From the NCBI GenBank assembly GCA_964467905.1, contig CAYXSY010000007.1, positions 116 through 64,115 of the forward strand: a DNA stretch of 64,000 nt, read 5' to 3'. Shown here piece after piece: positions 19,650 through 49,514 of this stretch (its first letter is position 1; the number at the start of each line of letters is the position of its first letter). Under the pieces are notes generated by a model. The model worked only from the letters and a program-made list of their open reading frames with translations. It made no database searches and was not told the DNA's origin. Position numbers and translations under genes: made by a program. This DNA comes from an uncultured Planctomycetales bacterium (lineage in GTDB: Bacteria > Omnitrophota > Gorgyraeia > Gygaellales > Profunditerraquicolaceae).

Positions 19650-20378
19650 ATGTCTAAAGATAAAAAAAATTCAGATTACAAAGTTTATATGAAGCAAATC
19701 GAAGCGCTTGCAAAGGTCGCAAGCCTCATTACTTCCGGTATGTATGTAGAAGAACTTTTGCGTTTGATTGTCAATGTTACGGCAGAAGTTATGAATTCTA
19801 AGATTTCGTCTTTGATGCTTTTAGATCCTGATAAAAAGGAATTGGTAATCAGGGCTACGCAATCGATATCAGAGGCTTATAATAAAAAGCCTAATATAAA
19901 AGTCGGCGATGGTATCGCCGGCATAGTGGCGAAAGAAAAGAAGCCGCTGTGTGTTTTAGACGTTAGAAAAGATCCGCGCTATATGAACAGGGATATAGCC
20001 ATAAAGGAAGGGTTGTATTCTTTAGCGAGCGTGCCTATGATAGTAAAGGGAAGACTCAAAGGGGTTATTAATTGTTATACTTCTAAGAAGCATGAGTTTA
20101 CCAAGGGTGAATTAGCTATACTTACTGCTTTGGCAAGTCAGGCAGCAGTGGCTATTGAGAATGCCGAGTTGGATGTGAGGGCGCGTACAGCCGAAGAGGC
20201 CCTTACCAGCCGTAAGATAATTGAGCGCGCAAAGGAAATTATAGCCCAGGAAACAAACATCCTTCCTTCTGAGGCGTACCGCTTGATACAGAAACAGAGC
20301 ATGGACAAGCGTAAAACTATGCGTGAGATTGCCGAAGCTATTATATTAGCTAAAGATGTAACTAATAAAAGTATTTAG
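19650..20378 (+). CDS. GAF-ANTAR one-component RNA-binding antiterminator (paralog 1)
   Basis: N-terminal GAF domain (LRLIVNVTAEVMNS...GVINCYT...AAVAIENAEL). C-terminal ANTAR three-helix region (SRKIIERAKEIIAQETNILPSEAYRLIQKQSMDKRKTMREIAEAIILA). No receiver domain. Confidence 0.85.
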   Translation: MSKDKKNSDYKVYMKQIEALAKVASLITSGMYVEELLRLIVNVTAEVMNSKISSLMLLDPDKKELVIRATQSISEAYNKKPNIKVGDGIAGIVAKEKKPLCVLDVRKDPRYMNRDIAIKEGLYSLASVPMIVKGRLKGVINCYTSKKHEFTKGELAILTALASQAAVAIENAELDVRARTAEEALTSRKIIERAKEIIAQETNILPSEAYRLIQKQSMDKRKTMREIAEAIILAKDVTNKSI

Positions 20379-20385
20379 AAAGACC

Positions 20386-20502
20386 TTGACAGGTTGTTGA
20401 TTTGTGGTATATTCCTTTTAATTGGTGAGTACGAAGACGTCTTACCTTGGAACAAGGGAGACGTCTTTTTATTTTTATAAATAGTGCCTAAAAATTAGGC
20501 AC
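20386..20502 (+). promoter_or_regulatory. promoter plus leader attenuator in front of the Nfn/GltA-like operon
   Basis: TTGACA (20386-20391), 16-nt spacer, TGgTATATT (20405-20413). Terminator: 9-bp stem 20434-20442/20459-20467 and an inner 5-bp stem 20445-20449/20453-20457, followed by TTTTTATTTTT. A competing hairpin 20424-20446 (GGTGAG...CTTACC) could act as an antiterminator. A further 8-bp hairpin lies at 20484-20502, just before the RBS. Confidence 0.65.
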
Positions 20503-20519
20503 AAAATGGCGCAGGAACG

Positions 20520-24281: not shown

Positions 24282-24299
24282 ATTTAGATAACAACATAC

Positions 24300-24554
24300 T
24301 TGACAAGGCTCTAATAGTATGTTATTCTTTTCTTAACAATTTAAAAGAGCACAAGGTTGTGCTTAAGATAAAGGACAAAGGCGTTATATAACAATATAAC
24401 GCCTTTTTCTTTTTTATCCTATTCTATGTGAGAATAATTTTATAAAAGTAAGCCCTTCATGCCCGGTCACTTAGAGGGAGAACGGGGTTTTACTTTTTAT
24501 GTAAACAATGGCGTTTTATGCCGTAATCCGGCATAGAACGCCTTTTTATTTTTT
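24300..24554 (+). promoter_or_regulatory. promoter plus two tandem hexaloop-hairpin/terminator attenuators upstream of GAF-ANTAR paralog 2
   Basis: TTGACA (24300-24305), 17-nt spacer, TGtTATTCT (24320-24328). P1 AGCAC-AAGGTT-GTGCT at 24348-24363. P2 GAC-AAAGGC-GTT at 24374-24385, overlapping terminator 24377-24416 (GGCGTTATAT/ATATAACGCC + T-run). Second unit: AAAC-AATGGC-GTTT at 24503-24516, overlapping terminator 24510-24554 (14-bp stem + TTTTTATTTTTT). Confidence 0.7.
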
Positions 24555-24558
24555 AGCC

Positions 24559-25266
24559 ATGCAAAATTCATTTAATGAACAAATAAAGGCCCTTTCTAAA
24601 ATCAGTAAGGCGATTACTTCAGATTTCTATCTGGAGGATATATTGCGTCTGATTGTTACAGTTACGGCAGAAGTTTTAGATTCTAATATTTGTTCTTTGA
24701 TGCTTATTGATGAGAAAACTGGTGAATTAATTGTCCGGGCTACTCAGAGCGTAAGCGAAGAATACAATAAGAAGATGCCTCTTAAGGTTGGTGAAGGCAT
24801 TGCCGGCAAGGCGGTTGAACATAATAAGGCAATAGCAGTAAAGGATGTTACTAAAGAAAAAGAATATAAACATAAAGATGTCGCCAGAAAAGAAGGGCTC
24901 GTATCTTTGTTATGTGTCCCCATGTCGGTAAAGGGTAAAACAATCGGAGTAATTAATTGTTATACCGCCAAAGCACATAATTTCAGCGATACAGAGATAG
25001 AGATATTGACTACTATTGCCAATCAGGCGGCAGTAGCTATTGAGAATACCGAGCTTATGGTTAAAAGCAGGGTTATCCAGGAAGAACTGGAGACTCGCAA
25101 GAGGATTGAGCGCGCCAAAGGTGTTTTAATGCGTGATGAAAAACTCACTGAGGAACAGGCGTATTTAAAGATCCGTAAATATAGTATGGATAATCGTAAA
25201 AGCATGCGTGAAGTGGCGGAAGCGATTATCTTGGCAGCAGATATGAAGCAATTAATCAGGAGCTAA
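24559..25266 (+). CDS. GAF-ANTAR one-component RNA-binding antiterminator (paralog 2)
   Basis: Clear paralog of 19650-20378, with shared runs LRLIV.VTAEV, RATQS, GVINCYT, AAVAIEN and MRE.AEAIILA. The track start at 24508 lies inside the upstream terminator, so Met at 24559 (MQNSFNEQ...) is taken as the start. Confidence 0.85.
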   Translation: MQNSFNEQIKALSKISKAITSDFYLEDILRLIVTVTAEVLDSNICSLMLIDEKTGELIVRATQSVSEEYNKKMPLKVGEGIAGKAVEHNKAIAVKDVTKEKEYKHKDVARKEGLVSLLCVPMSVKGKTIGVINCYTAKAHNFSDTEIEILTTIANQAAVAIENTELMVKSRVIQEELETRKRIERAKGVLMRDEKLTEEQAYLKIRKYSMDNRKSMREVAEAIILAADMKQLIRS

Positions 25267-27023: not shown

Positions 27024-27212
27024 ATGGATAACAAAGGGTTATGTATCAATTGTGCTCACGATAAAACTTGCAGCTTTGTAAGATTTCCTTTGATTTTGCA
27101 GTGTGAAGAATTTGATATCGCTTCTGTTAGCACGGCAGAGCAAAAGTTGCAAAGTTTGAAAAAGAGCGCGCAGTATAAACCAGCTACAGAGCAAGAATAT
27201 ACTGTAGAATAA
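27024..27212 (+). CDS. small Cys-rich protein coupled to the GltS-like gene
   Basis: 62 aa with CINCAHDKTCSF...LQCEEF (a 4-Cys pattern). The start lies 2 nt after the upstream stop. Function unknown. Confidence 0.45.
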   Translation: MDNKGLCINCAHDKTCSFVRFPLILQCEEFDIASVSTAEQKLQSLKKSAQYKPATEQEYTVE

Positions 27213-27292: not shown

Positions 27293-27399
27293 TTGACAAA
27301 ACCCTCTGATATGGTAAAATAACTATACATAGGAGCAGTAGCAAGACAGAGAAGTCTTTTAGTAGAGCAAATGCTACTAAAAGACTTTTTTTATTTTTT
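27293..27399 (+). promoter_or_regulatory. promoter plus AAGAC-N6-GTCTT hairpin and leader terminator of the hydrogenase operon
   Basis: TTGACA (27293-27298), 16-nt spacer, TGgTAAAAT (27312-27320). Hairpin AAGAC-AGAGAA-GTCTT at 27343-27358 overlaps the 5' arm of a 13-bp terminator (27353-27365/27374-27386) followed by TTTTTTTATTTTTT. Confidence 0.7.
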
Positions 27400-36384: not shown

Positions 36385-36773
36385 GTAGGCCAGGTAAGGT
36401 TACTAGGCAGGTTTTGTCTTCTTTGACCAAGAAACCGGCAACTATAAATTATCCGCGCCAGGCATCCCCTATGCCTAAAGGATTCCGCGGTAAACTTAAA
36501 TTTAATCCCGATCTTTGTATAGGGTGCCGTATGTGCATGCGTGATTGCCCTACGGGAGCAATAGAAATACGCAAAGTAGCCGATAAAACATTCGAGGCAG
36601 TAATAGATTTGGGTAAATGTATATATTGCGGACAATGTGCGGATTCCTGTATAAAAAAAGCCATACAGCTGACAGGCGATTTCGAGCTTGCCGAGCTTGA
36701 TTATAAGAAGCTTAATATTATTTTTAAGAATGAACCATCTGAAGGAAGCTCTCAGGGGCAAGCTAAAGAATAA
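36381..36773 (+). CDS. 2x[4Fe-4S] ferredoxin subunit, NuoI/MbhN-type
   Basis: CIGCRMCMRDCP and CIYCGQCADSC motifs. ATGA overlap with the upstream gene. Confidence 0.85.
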   Translation: MSRPGKVTRQVLSSLTKKPATINYPRQASPMPKGFRGKLKFNPDLCIGCRMCMRDCPTGAIEIRKVADKTFEAVIDLGKCIYCGQCADSCIKKAIQLTGDFELAELDYKKLNIIFKNEPSEGSSQGQAKE

Positions 36774-37227
36774 GCACAAAATTGTTGTCTTAGGTATAGG
36801 TTCTGATTTCAGGGGTGATGATGCCTCTGGGCTTATGGCCGCTAGAATTGTTTTAAGAAGGATATCCAGGCGTAAGACGCCAGGCAGAATTAGCGCGGTC
36901 TTTGCAGAGTCAGTTCCTGAAAATATCACAGGTTTAATCCGTAAGATAAAACCTGGCTACGTTATAGTTATTGATTCTGCGCATATAGGTAAGCAGGCTG
37001 GAGATTTTTGTGTCATTGAGCCCAGCGATATAGAAAATAATCTTGTCAGTACCCATAAAGTGTCTTTGGACGTGTTCTCTAGATATCTTGAGCAGAGTAT
37101 AGGTTGTAAAATGTTTATCGTTGGGATACAGCCTAAGTCTATAAAATTCGGTTCTTCTGTTACTAAACAGGTAGCATTAGCCGCAAAAAAAGTAGCCGTT
37201 ACGTTAATTGAGCTTGACAAGGCCTGA
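36730..37227 (+). CDS. hydrogenase maturation endopeptidase (HycI-like)
   Basis: KIVVLGIGSDFRGDDASG, then DSAH and VSTHK. Met at 36730 is chosen; the track start at 36688 lies deeper inside the previous gene. Confidence 0.75.
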   Translation: MNHLKEALRGKLKNKHKIVVLGIGSDFRGDDASGLMAARIVLRRISRRKTPGRISAVFAESVPENITGLIRKIKPGYVIVIDSAHIGKQAGDFCVIEPSDIENNLVSTHKVSLDVFSRYLEQSIGCKMFIVGIQPKSIKFGSSVTKQVALAAKKVAVTLIELDKA

Positions 37228-37359
37228 TTATATGGTATAATTTACTTGTAATAGATAAGAAAGACAAAGATGTCTTCAGGCAAATAGGCCTGAAGATTTT
37301 TTATTCTCTAGGACTAAGGCGTCCTTTTATCCGGTGGTGGGTAGAGGGACGTTTTTTTT
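37214..37359 (+). promoter_or_regulatory. promoter plus two tandem hairpin/terminator units upstream of the sigma-factor gene
   Basis: TTGACA (37214-37219), 16-nt spacer, TGgTATAAT (37233-37241). AAGAC-AAAGAT-GTCTT at 37261-37276 overlaps terminator TCTTCAGGC/GCCTGAAGA + TTTTTT (37273-37302). GGAC-TAAGGC-GTCC at 37311-37324 overlaps a second stem (37320-37328/37343-37351) followed by T8. Confidence 0.65.
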
Positions 37360-37375
37360 GTTTTAAAGGAGAGCC

Positions 37376-37900
37376 ATGAGTGATTTTGAGATTTTATTAA
37401 AAAGAATATCGCCGGTTTTAAAAAGAATAACCTTTAAATTAGGCGGATATCATACTTTTCTTAACGAAGAAGATTTATATCAGGAAGCCCTGGTATTTTT
37501 ATGGCAAAAATTAGGCTTGGGCGAGCTTTCTGATAAGACGGATAGTTATATACTACAGGGTTGTTATTTTCATCTTAAGAATTATATAAGAAAAAAATAC
37601 AAGAAGATTAATTTTATAAGCATAGATAATATTATAAATGCTGAAGAAGATAACACGCGCAGTGGTTTTTCATTGAAAGATGAGAAATCGCTTTATTACA
37701 GAGACGAGCTTAATGCCAGGTTTATTGCGGATTCTATACGCAATAACGGGTTAGACGATAGAGAAAAAGAGATTGTGGGCTATTATGCGCAGGGTCTTAC
37801 TACCAGGGACATAGGGAAACGATTAGGCCTTTCCCATGTACGTATAGTAAAAATAACCGCCGAAATACGGGTTAAATGCCGCAAGCATATAGATTATTGA
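37376..37900 (+). CDS. ECF-like sigma-70 family factor (regions 2 and 4 only)
   Basis: Region 2 is EDLYQEALVFLWQK. Region 4 HTH is REKEIVGYYAQGLTTRDIGKRLGLSHVRIVKI. No anti-sigma gene is evident next to it. Confidence 0.65.
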   Translation: MSDFEILLKRISPVLKRITFKLGGYHTFLNEEDLYQEALVFLWQKLGLGELSDKTDSYILQGCYFHLKNYIRKKYKKINFISIDNIINAEEDNTRSGFSLKDEKSLYYRDELNARFIADSIRNNGLDDREKEIVGYYAQGLTTRDIGKRLGLSHVRIVKITAEIRVKCRKHIDY

Positions 37901-37971
37901 TTTTGTTGTTACCAATTCATGTAAATTGTTACTTGTATAAGTGAAACACATTGATGTGTAGTAGTAAAGCC

Positions 37972-38009
37972 AAGGATGCTTAAGTTTTAAGTATCCTTTT
38001 TTTGTTTTT
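37972..38009 (+). terminator. intrinsic terminator after the sigma-factor gene
   Basis: A 12-bp stem AAGGATGCTTAA/TTAAGTATCCTT (one G-U pair), 3-nt loop, then TTTTTTTGTTTTT. Confidence 0.75.
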
Positions 38010-38012
38010 ATC

Positions 38013-38066
38013 AAGACGTTGGTGTCTTTTTGGCATTGGAGTCGCCAGGAAGGCGCCATTTTTTTT
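38013..38066 (+). promoter_or_regulatory. AAGAC-N6-GTCTT hairpin plus U-run, then a GC hairpin plus T8; alternatively a sigma54-like -24/-12 element
   Basis: AAGAC-GTTGGT-GTCTT at 38013-38028, followed by TTT. CGCC-AGGAA-GGCG at 38043-38055, flanked by TGG/CCA and followed by T8 (38059-38066). TGGCAT-N5-TCGC at 38031-38045 matches the GG/GC spacing of sigma54 promoters. Confidence 0.4.
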
Positions 38067-38092
38067 GCGCAACCAGAAAAAGGAGAGGTTTT

Positions 38093-38860
38093 ATGCGTAA
38101 GGCTATGTGCTTATTATTGTTAGTTTTTGCTCTTCACGGATTTGTTCTCGCAGGCGAAAGTCCAGAAGCCACATTGTTAGGAAAATCCGGTTTTGAGGTC
38201 AGCGGCGATGTTTCGTTTTTCACTCAATACATATGGAGAGGTTTTGTTTTAGACAGAGATGCTGTTTTTCAGCCGGGTATTTATATATCCAGTCCAAAGT
38301 CTAAGTTCGGCAGGGTAAAAGGCGGGTTTTGGTCTAATGTTCCTTTGCAGAATAAAGATGATTTGAGTTCGCAAGAGTACGATTATATATTCGATTACAC
38401 TTATGATTTTAAATATGCGAGCGTATCTTTAGGGCATACTTATTATGATTTTTCCGGCACCCATACTTATAGCAAAGAGTTTTACGTTGGCTTGAACCTG
38501 CCGGGGATCTTTCTATCCCCATCAGTGTATTATTACCGCGATTACGGAGACCCTAAACATGGCGGCGGGCTTGGTAGTTATACCGTTGTAAGCGCTTCCT
38601 ATAGCTTACCGCTAGACTTAAAAAATATACCCTGCAGCCTTGATTTATCCGGTCATGTAGGTTTTAACCATAATTTGTTCATGGATGGCGATGGCGGAGA
38701 TGTTGCTTTAAAAGTAGGTTTTACAGTGCCAATTACCAAGAATCTTAAACTGACGCCCAATGTAAATTATTCTATTCCTTTCGGCGATTTAAGGGATAAG
38801 GACCACGCTAATCAGAAAGACAGGTTCTTTGGAGGCGGAACTTTAGCGTATGTATTTTAG
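38093..38860 (+). CDS. outer-membrane beta-barrel porin (TorF/Gcw_chp-like) linked to amtB
   Basis: Signal peptide MRKAMCLLLLVFALHGFVLA. Alternating beta-strand pattern, an SGDVSFFTQYIWRGF N-terminal motif, and a C-terminal ...LAYVF. Good RBS (AAAGGAGAGG) before ATG 38093. The track TTG start at 38030 is rejected. Confidence 0.6.
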   Translation: MRKAMCLLLLVFALHGFVLAGESPEATLLGKSGFEVSGDVSFFTQYIWRGFVLDRDAVFQPGIYISSPKSKFGRVKGGFWSNVPLQNKDDLSSQEYDYIFDYTYDFKYASVSLGHTYYDFSGTHTYSKEFYVGLNLPGIFLSPSVYYYRDYGDPKHGGGLGSYTVVSASYSLPLDLKNIPCSLDLSGHVGFNHNLFMDGDGGDVALKVGFTVPITKNLKLTPNVNYSIPFGDLRDKDHANQKDRFFGGGTLAYVF

Positions 38861-40464: not shown

Positions 40465-40531
40465 AAAAAGATGTTACCAAAGTACAGGTTTATTTACTTG
40501 TATATATAGATAATCAAAGCTCGTTTTTTTA

Positions 40532-40611
40532 GCACATCGTAGTGCAAAAATAGGCATAAAGAAGACAGGGGCGTTCTTCAATCGCAAGGAAGGACGCCTC
40601 TTTATTTTTTT
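40532..40611 (+). promoter_or_regulatory. dual hexaloop hairpins plus terminator between glnK and glnN
   Basis: P1 GCAC-ATCGTA-GTGC at 40532-40545. P2 GAC-AGGGGC-GTT at 40564-40575, overlapping a 13-bp terminator stem (40567-40579/40589-40601) followed by TTTATTTTTTT. An extended -10 TGgTATAAT at 40620-40628 lies downstream of the terminator. Confidence 0.6.
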
Positions 40612-40656
40612 ATAGGCTGTGGTATAATAAAGAAAATTATTCATAGGAGGGTGTAT

Positions 40657-42849: not shown

Positions 42850-42905
42850 AAGCTTTTAGATATATAGAGTACGCTGTAGTATTCTAAAGAATATTTTCTA
42901 AGAAA

Positions 42906-42964
42906 GAACATCGACGTTCATAAAAGTTGGATTATTTTTCCAGCTTGGATGAACGTCTTTTTTT
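42906..42964 (+). promoter_or_regulatory. hexaloop hairpin overlapping a terminator between glnN and the mini-NtrC/gltB genes
   Basis: GAAC-ATCGAC-GTTC at 42906-42919 overlaps the 5' arm of stem GACGTTCAT/ATGAACGTC (42913-42921/42949-42957), followed by TTTTTTT. Confidence 0.55.
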
Positions 42965-43024
42965 ATCCATTATGCCATAATGGAATATTCTTATAACAAG
43001 CATTGATTAAGGTTTGGGCAAAAT

Positions 43025-49388: not shown

Positions 49389-49497
49389 TTGACTTATAAT
49401 TATGTCGTGGTATAATTTAAGTGTAATTCAGGGTAGAATTGCTATAAAACAATGGCGTTTAGAGATAGGAAAATTGTCTCTAAGCGCCATTTTTATT
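49389..49497 (+). promoter_or_regulatory. promoter plus canonical dual-hexaloop (ANTAR-type) attenuator of the pyrG-carAB-purF operon
   Basis: TTGACT (49389-49394), 16-nt spacer, TGgTATAAT (49408-49416). P1 GTAATTC-AGGGTA-GAATTGC at 49423-49442. 4-nt linker. P2 AAAC-AATGGC-GTTT at 49447-49460, overlapping a 14-bp terminator stem (49452-49465/49477-49490) followed by TTTTATT. Confidence 0.75.
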
Positions 49498-49514
49498 GAG
49501 TAAAAGGAAAGATT

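Follow-up and report, generated by a model that had tools for sequence, protein, structure and literature searches.

Two probable ANTAR-type attenuators in series precede a sigma factor gene in Omnitrophota and probably gate a nitrogen-assimilation cascade

We analyzed a 64,000-nt stretch of contig CAYXSY010000007.1 from an Omnitrophota genome (hereafter the window) and concentrated on the leader of a gene encoding a sigma-70-family factor of the size typical of extracytoplasmic function (ECF) sigma factors. The best explanation that we can offer for the whole locus, which is computational throughout and to which we assign a probability of about 0.7, is that this leader contains two serial ANTAR-type attenuators that gate the sigma factor, which in turn drives a cascade of nitrogen operons. 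The serial checkpoint itself is well supported.

Downstream of a sigma-70-type promoter, the leader contains two units, each composed of a small antiterminator hairpin with a six-nucleotide loop (hexaloop, written in square brackets below) and an intrinsic terminator, T1 or T2 (Table 1). At unit 1, the 5' arm of T1 begins with the 3' arm of the small hairpin, so that bases 37272-37276 belong to both. At unit 2, the hairpin's loop and 3' arm (AAGGCGUCC) form the opening of T2, and bases 37316-37325 are common to both. Because each hairpin shares bases with its own terminator, the two structures exclude each other, and this mutual exclusivity, a hallmark of ANTAR target RNAs, was found at both units and also in the relatives described below. 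T1 and T2 both have the form of intrinsic terminators, a G+C-rich stem-loop followed by a U-run. The T1 stem consists of 10 pairs, 5 of them G-C and one G-U, and is followed by U6; the 18 pairs of T2 include 6 G-C, and its last bases are the first four U of U8. The ATG of the sigma gene lies at 37376, ~20 nt from T2, leaving no space for a further promoter. With both units behind one promoter, transcription of the sigma gene must therefore pass two conditional terminators serially. An earlier note on this DNA had proposed the promoter, both hairpins, the terminators, and their T6 and T8 runs at these positions, and the sequence confirmed every detail; its claim that a single promoter serves both units and that an ECF-like sigma gene follows them was likewise confirmed, and 50 leaders share this order.

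We assessed the stability of the competing structures by folding. A scan of positions 36500-38600 detected 6 terminator-like sites, compared with 1.7 ± 1.5 in shuffled sequences. The complete leader folded at -48.5 kcal/mol (z = -5.4), and none of 200 shuffles was equally stable. At unit 1, the terminator fold reached -19.1 kcal/mol versus -14.3 kcal/mol with the small hairpin forced (a gap of ~5 kcal/mol), and at unit 2 the corresponding values were -24.1 and -13.8 kcal/mol (~10 kcal/mol). Forcing either small hairpin abolished the corresponding terminator in the fold. As the terminator folds are far more stable than the hairpins that compete with them, these results indicate that termination is the default and that maintaining the hairpins requires a factor.

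The decisive evidence comes from the comparison with relatives. We read the regions upstream of the orthologous sigma gene at 80 loci (L001-L080) taken from different species of Omnitrophota, and both units were present in the same order at 49 of them, giving 50 tandem leaders when the window is counted. Recurrence of the same two units in the same order in 50 leaders demonstrates that the tandem layout is not due to chance. In 48 of the 50 leaders, unit 1 has a sigma-70-type promoter (TTGACA-N16-18-TAnnnT) no more than 90 nt before it, and the usual geometry, counted from the ATG, places the promoter at about -170, unit 1 at about -118, and unit 2 at about -65. The GAC...GUCUU of unit 1 and the GGAC...G..GUCC of unit 2 were invariant in an alignment of 23 standard leaders (A2), and the GGA..GUCC of unit 2 was invariant across 48 sequences. 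The gap between the two hairpins was 34-41 nt in 31 of the 50 leaders, and inserts of up to 171 nt occur. Short hairpin-forming repeats (e.g. gcccacaagggcacaccaaacaatcctatatgtttgggtg), which look like a miniature-repeat family, are inserted between units 1 and 2 or within amt leaders at L049, L052, L057, L070, and L078. Repeat inserts between the units imply that the unit spacing is not critical.

Approximately 24 relatives at first seemed to have no leader; in these, the sigma gene directly follows nadE, which encodes a glutamine-dependent NAD synthetase of 570-630 aa. This arrangement occurs in about a quarter of the relatives (L005, L009, L021, L027, L029, L035, L046, L048, L049, L053, L066, L067, L071, L076, and others). 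At most of these loci, hairpin units were found upstream of nadE, ~1750 to 2100 nt before the sigma start, implying a nadE-sigma operon. Both units were present at 3 or 4 of them (L029, L046, L067, L075) and a unit-2-type hairpin alone at ~8 more; at L005, we found no ANTAR-type hairpin unit upstream of nadE. At six loci, the sigma gene is preceded, without a promoter, by gltS and the gene of a GAF-ANTAR protein (ANTAR2, see below), and only unit 2 lies between gltS and the sigma gene. The first checkpoint in these six cases is the leader of ANTAR2 itself.

Comparison of the relatives' leaders also provided evidence for the terminator stems. The RNAalifold consensus was exactly T1 plus T2, both terminator hairpins could be folded in nearly every relative, and the T1 stem is maintained through compensating changes. 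A first MAFFT alignment of whole leaders mis-registered the terminator loops, and T2 was therefore re-aligned alone. In the 48 aligned unit 2 segments, 86.4% of cells pair and compensating double changes occur at 8 of 15 pairs, with the inner four pairs appearing in two registers even in this T2-only alignment. None of 500 shuffles attained the T2 covariation score, and slid controls paired at 45-64%.

These data bear on the question of whether T1 and T2 are an unregulated, fail-safe double terminator of the upstream hydrogenase operon, with the small hairpins being incidental. T1 is located only ~45 nt past the stop codon of the upstream hycI-like gene, and both T1 and T2 are strong intrinsic terminators, as would be expected in that case. 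However, the promoter precedes both terminators and there is no space for another one, so that the sigma gene could then never be expressed. Moreover, the hairpins and their terminator overlap are kept behind four different upstream genes (ANTAR1, nadE, gltS, or hycI), and unit 1 is part of a canonical dual-hexaloop ANTAR site in 33 of the 50 leaders. We consider this explanation very improbable; the location of the promoter ahead of T1 and the retention of the unit behind these four genes led us to reject T1 as the terminator of the upstream operon.

We give still less credence to the idea that the leader belongs to a known class of cis-regulatory RNA, be it of the PyrR type or, for example, a riboswitch. 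Its starting point is a sub-threshold Rfam match to the PyrR-binding site (RF00515) at 37240-37357, which scores 33.3 bits against a gathering score of 54. The PyrR-binding loop (..UCCAGAGAGG..) is deleted in that alignment, so that only generic hairpins and U-runs match, and the regulated gene and its neighbors are nitrogen genes, not pyr genes. A PyrR-binding site was rejected on account of the missing loop. The Rfam scan of the whole window returned no family at its gathering score, and permissive scans gave only sub-threshold matches.

ANTAR proteins bind hexaloop hairpins with conserved loop positions 1 and 4, the second of which overlaps a terminator, and their regulons are centered on nitrogen genes (Ramesh et al. 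2012, PMC3369931). The minimal ANTAR site is a single hexaloop, and a dimer was proposed to bind a recruitment hairpin and then the terminator-proximal one (Walshe et al. 2022, PMC8934654). Measured against the A1/G4 pattern of the dual-hexaloop motif, unit 1 of the window has both residues, and unit 2 has G4 but not A1. The counts that follow were obtained with regular expressions and are approximate. In the relatives, the unit 1 loop has A1 in 37, G4 in 42, and A5 in 38 of 45 cases; the unit 2 loop has the consensus UAAGGC, with U1 in 39 of 58 (A1 in 11), A2 in 50, A3 in 44, G4 in 57, G5 in 43, and C6 in 54.

In most relatives, unit 1 also has a partner. A recruitment hairpin of the form UAC[ANNGNN]GUA, termed P0, with G4 in its hexaloop, precedes unit 1 in 33 of the 50 tandem leaders (A1 in 29 of the 33), at a distance of 0-5 nt apart from one case of 12 nt. 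P0 is missing in the window and in 16 other tandem leaders, the closest relatives of the window among them, and these leaders appear to have lost it. In the window, the spot is occupied by a weak pentaloop hairpin, probably a degenerate recruitment hairpin, and this is all that precedes unit 1; unit 2 is a single hexaloop without a partner. Judged by these features, unit 1 would belong to the classical dual-hexaloop family in most relatives and unit 2 only partly. At L058, the unit-2-like hairpin GGAC[UCAGGC]GUCC occupies the second position in a dual site that is canonical in all other respects. The general design AC[NNNGNN]GU also occurs before amt, glnB, the genes for glutamine synthetase (GS), glutamate synthase (GOGAT), and glutamate dehydrogenase (gdh), and the ANTAR2 gene. 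From these likenesses, we infer that both units operate like ANTAR attenuators and that an ANTAR protein binds their hairpins.

Several observations weigh against this explanation. In the window, unit 1 has no proper recruitment hairpin, and unit 2 never has one close by in any leader; the first position of the unit 2 loop is U, not A. Binding by EutV depends on loop position 1, and the spacing of its hairpins is constrained (PMC3369931, PMC8934654). The stems of the antiterminator hairpins are sequence-invariant in both the A2 and the 48-sequence alignments, so that no covariation was obtainable for them and support for these stems is indirect. Finally, the link between the sigma factor and the promoter-like motif described below rests on their adjacency and on the dissimilarity of the motif to the sigma-70 consensus; a different sigma factor might recognize the motif, or it might serve as an operator for a DNA-binding protein.

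The unusual first loop position of unit 2 becomes clearer when other tandem leaders are considered, because the porin-amt-glnB leaders of relatives are tandem as well. Two terminator-overlapping hairpins were present in 34 leaders. The one in first position is xAAC[ANNGGC]GUUx (A1 in 29 of 34, GUU arm in 33 of 34), and these leaders usually have an upstream hexaloop hairpin of the CAC[ANNGNA]GUG type. The second is AGAC[GNAGGC]GUCU (G1 in 24 of 34, a non-A residue in 25 of 34, GUC arm in 33 of 34); in the porin-amt leaders read, we saw no obvious partner for this second-position hairpin. Sigma unit 2 groups with the partner-less second-position class (GAC[BNAGGC]GUC) and not with the GS/GOGAT sites. 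Some operons have a single class, type III GS (GS-III) and hth8-GOGAT only the first and gdh and the gltD-like operon only the second. Sigma unit 1 is a hybrid that combines the GAC/GUC stem of the second class with the A1 of the first.

These results change two points of the earlier note. It had suspected that the unit 2 loop, which starts with T in the DNA, is weak or degenerate. We rejected this idea: U1 is conserved, and A is likewise avoided at this position in the corresponding second unit of the porin-amt leaders, indicating that U1 is a feature of the class and not decay. The note had also described two hairpin classes in series, separating an AAGAC stem from a loop ending in GGC. Two classes in series held up as a design principle, but the boundaries did not, since sigma unit 2 groups with the porin-amt second unit, and we replaced the scheme with classes defined by position in the series in the 34 two-unit leaders.

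The candidate antiterminators are two GAF-ANTAR paralogs, ANTAR1 and ANTAR2, both of which exist in the window as the earlier note had stated. Their ANTAR domains match Pfam PF03861 with E = 1e-20 and 1e-17, and the proteins are 55% identical to each other. The ANTAR domains are similar to those of Rv1626, EutV, and NasR, and the GAF domains are most similar to those of PtsP/EI-Ntr and NifA; the GAF domain probably reports nitrogen status. Each paralog forms its own orthogroup across the phylum, syntenic with the sigma gene and 71-82% identical, a conservation far above that of the sigma factor (~50%). GAF-ANTAR proteins were described as uncharacterized (PMC3369931) and are not among the characterized examples of a 2025 review (PMC12591593).

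We mapped the RNA-contact residues of EutV (R142, K143, K147, K149, E160, Y164, R168, M172, N173, R175, and R177; PMC8934654) onto the paralogs and their orthologues. R142, K143, K149, Y164, M172, and R175 are retained in both orthogroups. ANTAR2 orthologues have E160 in 8 of 8 and R168 in 6 of 8 cases, whereas ANTAR1 orthologues have P, S, or A at position 160 and Q at position 168, each in 23 of 24. The first ANTAR helix reads ERAKDILSQ in ANTAR1 versus ERAKGILM in ANTAR2. Gene order differs as well: ANTAR2 genes lie behind first-class leaders, and the ANTAR1 gene is placed immediately before leaders with a second-class hairpin, with the tandem sigma leader directly following it in 18 of 30 cases. 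Separate RNA specificities of the two paralogs are plausible on these grounds.

Such specificities would refine the serial attenuator into a two-key AND gate, in which the two units are read by different paralogs and the sigma factor is made only when two signals coincide. Sites of the A1 type, namely unit 1 and those of GS/GOGAT, would be recognized by the canonical ANTAR2, and the divergent ANTAR1 would recognize stand-alone GAC[BNAGGC]GUC (unit 2 and the porin-amt second unit). The phylum-wide retention of both orthogroups with their consistent differences at EutV positions 160 and 168, the discrete and ordered hairpin classes of the 34 two-unit leaders, the existence of single-class operons, and the placement of the two genes behind or before leaders of the matching class all argue for this arrangement. 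The hybrid nature of sigma unit 1, however, makes different readers for the two sigma units doubtful, the paralogs could share all RNA sites and differ only in the ligand sensed, and gene-neighborhood associations are weak as evidence. We therefore put the two-key gate forward tentatively, as a possibility on which we would not wager.

A relay by a single regulator has a comparable claim to attention, and again we would not bet on it. One ANTAR dimer, formed by either paralog or by both redundantly, would be recruited at unit 1 and passed to unit 2, which would be a deliberately weaker site without a partner and work only after unit 1 has been occupied, such that the tandem provides stringency or a threshold and not the integration of two signals. 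The precedent is the successive binding of EutV, in which P1 recruits and the dimer cycles to P2, a single hexaloop being the minimal site (PMC8934654). Consistent with a relay, no recruitment hairpin ever accompanies unit 2, the two hairpins are most often separated by a short gap of narrow length range, and the unit 1 loop (ANNGAN) resembles the recruitment-hairpin loops of the regulon, with the unit 2 loop (NNAGGC) resembling terminator-overlapping hairpins. Nevertheless, the long inserts between the units are tolerated, unit 2 stands alone between gltS and the sigma gene at six loci, and the middle hairpin of the porin-amt leaders has no recruitment-type loop. Second-class hairpins also stand alone before gdh and the gltD-like operon, implying that this class can act without a nearby first unit.

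The product of the gated gene scores 47.2 bits against NCBIfam TIGR02937 (sigma70-ECF superfamily; cut-off 42.9) over residues 4-171, and some orthologues also match Pfam Sigma70_r2. It has 933 homologues, whose named sources are Candidatus Omnitrophica/Omnitrophota, and relatives of the sigma gene were present in 220 Omnitrophota genomes. We found no anti-sigma gene adjoining it in the window, where the downstream neighbors are porin, amt, and glnB.

Shortly past the sigma gene begins a two-block motif with strict spacing, GTTACCA-N15-TTTACTTGTA. We searched the 80 loci (757 kb) with the pattern TTACC-N16-YACTTGTA, allowing spacings of 13-18 nt. This yielded 120 sites, all on the sigma strand and all identically spaced, compared with ~0.3 expected by chance according to our own estimate. 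The sites precede porin/amt/glnB (79), GS-III (11), and hth8-GOGAT (8) and usually lie 10-60 nt past the sigma stop. Their consensus, aaat..gGTTACCAga-N8-tTtTTTACTTGTA.ta.TgtAag, is unlike the TTGACA/TATAAT elements used before the sigma gene itself.

A metagenome sample chosen by the motif alone (loci L081-L200) contained 138 sites. The genes downstream were amt (32), GS-III (20), hth8 (11), porin (9), glnB (5), and 39 others, which include type I GS (13), outer-membrane proteins (10), class I amidotransferase (3), amino acid permeases (2), and gatC (1); the sigma gene was the commonest upstream neighbor (37 of 117). Adjacency and the shape of the motif suggest that GTTACCA-N15-TTTACTTGTA is likely the promoter of the sigma regulon. 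The earlier note had placed a transcriptional layer below the RNA layer; this idea gains strong, though indirect, support from a conserved non-sigma-70 motif before nitrogen-assimilation operons, which the sigma factor would read. Autoregulation of the sigma gene was considered and rejected. A copy of TTTACTTGTA at 37241-37250 abuts the -10 element, but it has no GTTACCA block at the required distance and the relatives do not have this feature; no own-type promoter was found upstream of the sigma gene in the window, where its promoter is TTGACA-16-TATAAT.

Taken together, serial attenuation would operate as follows. Transcription would start at the strong housekeeping promoter and stop by default at T1, and what gets through would stop at T2. 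An active GAF-ANTAR protein would bind the emerging hexaloop hairpin of unit 1 and keep GUCUU from T1; the same would happen at unit 2, where GGAC[UAAGGC]GUCC would keep AAGGCGUCC from T2. Only transcripts past both checkpoints would encode the sigma factor, which should give a low leak and a steep response. The sigma factor would then most likely initiate at GTTACCA-N15-TTTACTTGTA before the porin-amt-glnB, GS, and GOGAT operons. As these operons bear ANTAR attenuators of their own, often two in series, the GAF-ANTAR protein would have to release them too, forming a coherent feed-forward cascade. A more elaborate version, which we regard as speculative and rather unlikely in its entirety, is that the Omnitrophota nitrogen regulon runs on a combinatorial protein-RNA code. 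The two paralogs would read xAAC[ANNGGC]GUUx plus a recruitment hairpin and stand-alone xGAC[BNAGGC]GUCx, respectively; the sigma gene and the ammonium-uptake operon would need both keys, GS/GOGAT and gdh one each, and the sigma factor would act as the feed-forward layer.

Among the closest known systems is that of EutV and the eut leaders of Enterococcus faecalis (PMC3369931, PMC8934654). Like the leaders described here, it uses hexaloop stem-loops with G4 (and A1, as in unit 1), its terminator-proximal hairpin overlaps an intrinsic terminator, and one locus contains several regulated terminators; the GAF-ANTAR proteins keep Y164, M172, R175, K149, R142, and K143 of EutV. The differences lie in the sensor, which is a phosphorylated receiver domain in eut and a GAF domain here, and in the layout, with two complete units back to back, a single-hairpin unit 2 with U1, and a sigma gene as the target. 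In addition, eut stems are read through the backbone only, whereas the closing AC/GU and GAC/GUC stems are sequence-conserved here.

In Geobacter sulfurreducens, GnfK/GnfR likewise control nitrogen genes by ANTAR antitermination, the GnfR site GGC[AANGGC]GCC overlapping the terminators of nifH, glnK, and amtB (PMC2995071). The GnfR loop ends in GGC and enters the terminator, a feature with close counterparts in unit 2 and the GS/GOGAT sites of the present system, and antitermination is again layered on a dedicated initiation system, such that targets need both initiation control and antitermination. In Geobacter, sigma-54 and the activator GnfL/GnfM provide the initiation step, and the ANTAR domain belongs to a response regulator. 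In Omnitrophota, initiation seems to be assigned to an ECF-size sigma factor whose own synthesis is ANTAR-controlled, with GAF-ANTAR proteins of the one-component type as the regulators. NasR with the nasF leader of Klebsiella, and NasT, share with the present system a one-component or partner-controlled ANTAR protein, the sensing of nitrogen compounds, and a leader terminator overridden via hexaloops. In those systems, however, there is only one attenuator, sensing is by a NIT or receiver-type domain, and the target is not a sigma factor but an operon for catabolism or assimilation.

Serial conditional terminators are also found in tandem riboswitches and tandem T-boxes, where they provide more stringency when both respond to the same ligand or Boolean logic when the ligands differ. 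In the bgl operon of E. coli, one antiterminator, BglG, acts at two terminators flanking its own gene, an arrangement that resembles the relatives with ANTAR2-gltS between the first leader and unit 2. The readers in these systems are RNA-ligand, tRNA, or CAT-domain based and not ANTAR proteins, and to our knowledge none of the three gates a sigma factor that drives the same regulon. Compared with ECF (group IV) sigma factors, the protein described here has the same size (~170-180 aa) and consists of regions 2 and 4 only, passes the TIGR02937 cut-off, and is associated with a strictly spaced two-block promoter. It differs in having neither an adjacent anti-sigma gene nor an autoregulated promoter of its own type, being controlled by a housekeeping promoter and antitermination instead.

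ANTAR regulons of nitrogen metabolism were widely predicted in 2012, and GnfR was shown to act in this way in Geobacter. The new elements are the GAF-ANTAR regulators, the two full attenuators per leader with a partner-less second class, the gated sigma factor, and its associated promoter; our literature searches found no report on Omnitrophota regulation, tandem ANTAR leaders, or an ANTAR-gated sigma factor. If our explanation is correct, a whole uncultured phylum governs ammonium assimilation by a compact cascade in which a metabolite-sensing RNA-binding protein gates a dedicated sigma factor and a protein of the same kind must also release the operons that this sigma factor starts. The natural pair of ANTAR paralogs and hairpin classes offers material for the study of ANTAR RNA specificity. 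The sigma factor and its likely promoter form a pair from an unculturable group that could be reconstituted in vitro or in E. coli, and the hairpin classes and the motif provide signatures for annotating nitrogen regulons in Omnitrophota metagenome bins.

Table 1. Features of the sigma leader and associated elements (positions in the window; loops in square brackets)
Feature	Position	Strand	Description	Basis or value
GAF-ANTAR paralog 1 (ANTAR1)	19650-20378	+	Candidate antiterminator	Pfam; in many relatives, the orthologue immediately precedes the tandem sigma leader
GAF-ANTAR paralog 2 (ANTAR2)	24508-25266	+	Candidate antiterminator with canonical EutV-like RNA-contact residues	Pfam; behind its own dual-hexaloop leader
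Sigma-70-type promoter	37214-37241	+	TTGACA-16 nt-TATAAT with TG before the -10 element	12/12 match, extended -10
Weak hairpin	37245-37259	+	CUUGU[AAUAG]AUAAG, pentaloop	Folding, ~ -0.2 kcal/mol
Unit 1 antiterminator hairpin	37261-37276	+	AAGAC[AAAGAU]GUCUU, hexaloop with A1 and G4	-3.9 kcal/mol alone
Terminator T1	37272-37302	+	GUCUUCAGGC[AAAUAG]GCCUGAAGAU, stem 37272-37297, U6 at 37297-37302	Terminator scan
Unit 2 antiterminator hairpin	37310-37325	+	AGGAC[UAAGGC]GUCCU, G4 present, U at loop position 1, no partner hairpin	-5.5 kcal/mol
Terminator T2	37316-37359	+	18-pair stem AAGGCGUCCUUUUAUCCG / UGGGUAGAGGGACGUUUU, stem 37316-37355, U8 at 37352-37359	Terminator scan
Ribosome-binding site	37365-37373	+	AAAGGAGAG	Sequence; the fold leaves the site unsequestered by T2
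Sigma-70-family, ECF-size sigma factor gene	37376-37900	+	174 aa	Pfam Sigma70_r4; NCBIfam TIGR02937
Candidate sigma-read promoter	37908-37937	+	GTTACCA-N15-(g)TTACTTGTA, 8 nt past the sigma stop, before porin-amt-glnB	Motif search
Second motif copy	40473-40502	+	Before the leader of type III glutamine synthetase	Motif search

The sigma gene lies within a nitrogen island. Downstream are genes for a porin-like protein, Amt, PII, and GS-III, and past GS-III a small Fis-type helix-turn-helix (HTH) protein, GltB, and GltD, followed by pyrG-carAB-purF. Upstream are a hydrogenase/Mrp cluster, a glutamate-synthase-like gene, ANTAR2, a glutamate dehydrogenase gene, a gltD-like pair, ANTAR1, and an aminotransferase gene. 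At least 8 operons in the window are preceded by hexaloop hairpins closed by AC...GU, with terminator overlap in all except one, at 27343-27358 (see below), and attenuation control appears to span nearly the whole island.

Among the ANTAR-type leaders of the window are those at 20379-20519 (after ANTAR1, before the gltD-like operon), 24282-24507 (before ANTAR2, dual-hexaloop), 40533-40630 (before GS-III), 42863-42965 (before hth8-gltBD), and 49420-49500 (before pyrG-carAB-purF). The porin-amt-glnB leader of the window (37946-38066) is tandem too. Its first unit consists of ACAC[AUUGAU]GUGU at 37946-37959 and a terminator at 37972-37998 with a U-run, and its second unit is AAGAC[GUUGGU]GUCUU (38013-38028), whose loop enters a 14-pair terminator at 38021-38057 followed by U8.

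The region at ~27293-27358 contains a sigma-70-type promoter (TTGACA..TAAAAT) followed by AAGAC[AGAGAA]GUCUU (27343-27358) without a terminator, 12 nt before the ATG (27371) of the first Mrp/hydrogenase gene. This hairpin might act as an ANTAR site in translational control or as a decoy, or it might be what is left of a unit 1 after the 10-kb hydrogenase cluster separated gltS and the sigma gene. A small Cys-rich open reading frame (ORF; MDNKGLCINCAHDKTCSF...LQCEEF...) lies at ~27024-27212, after the glutamate-synthase-like gene, and is kept in relatives L004, L012, and L050 directly before unit 2 of the sigma leader. Finally, at L002, L011, L017, L036, L053, L061, L070, and L076, the sigma gene is immediately followed by a short PII-like ORF of ~78-85 aa with 34-41% identity to GlnB.

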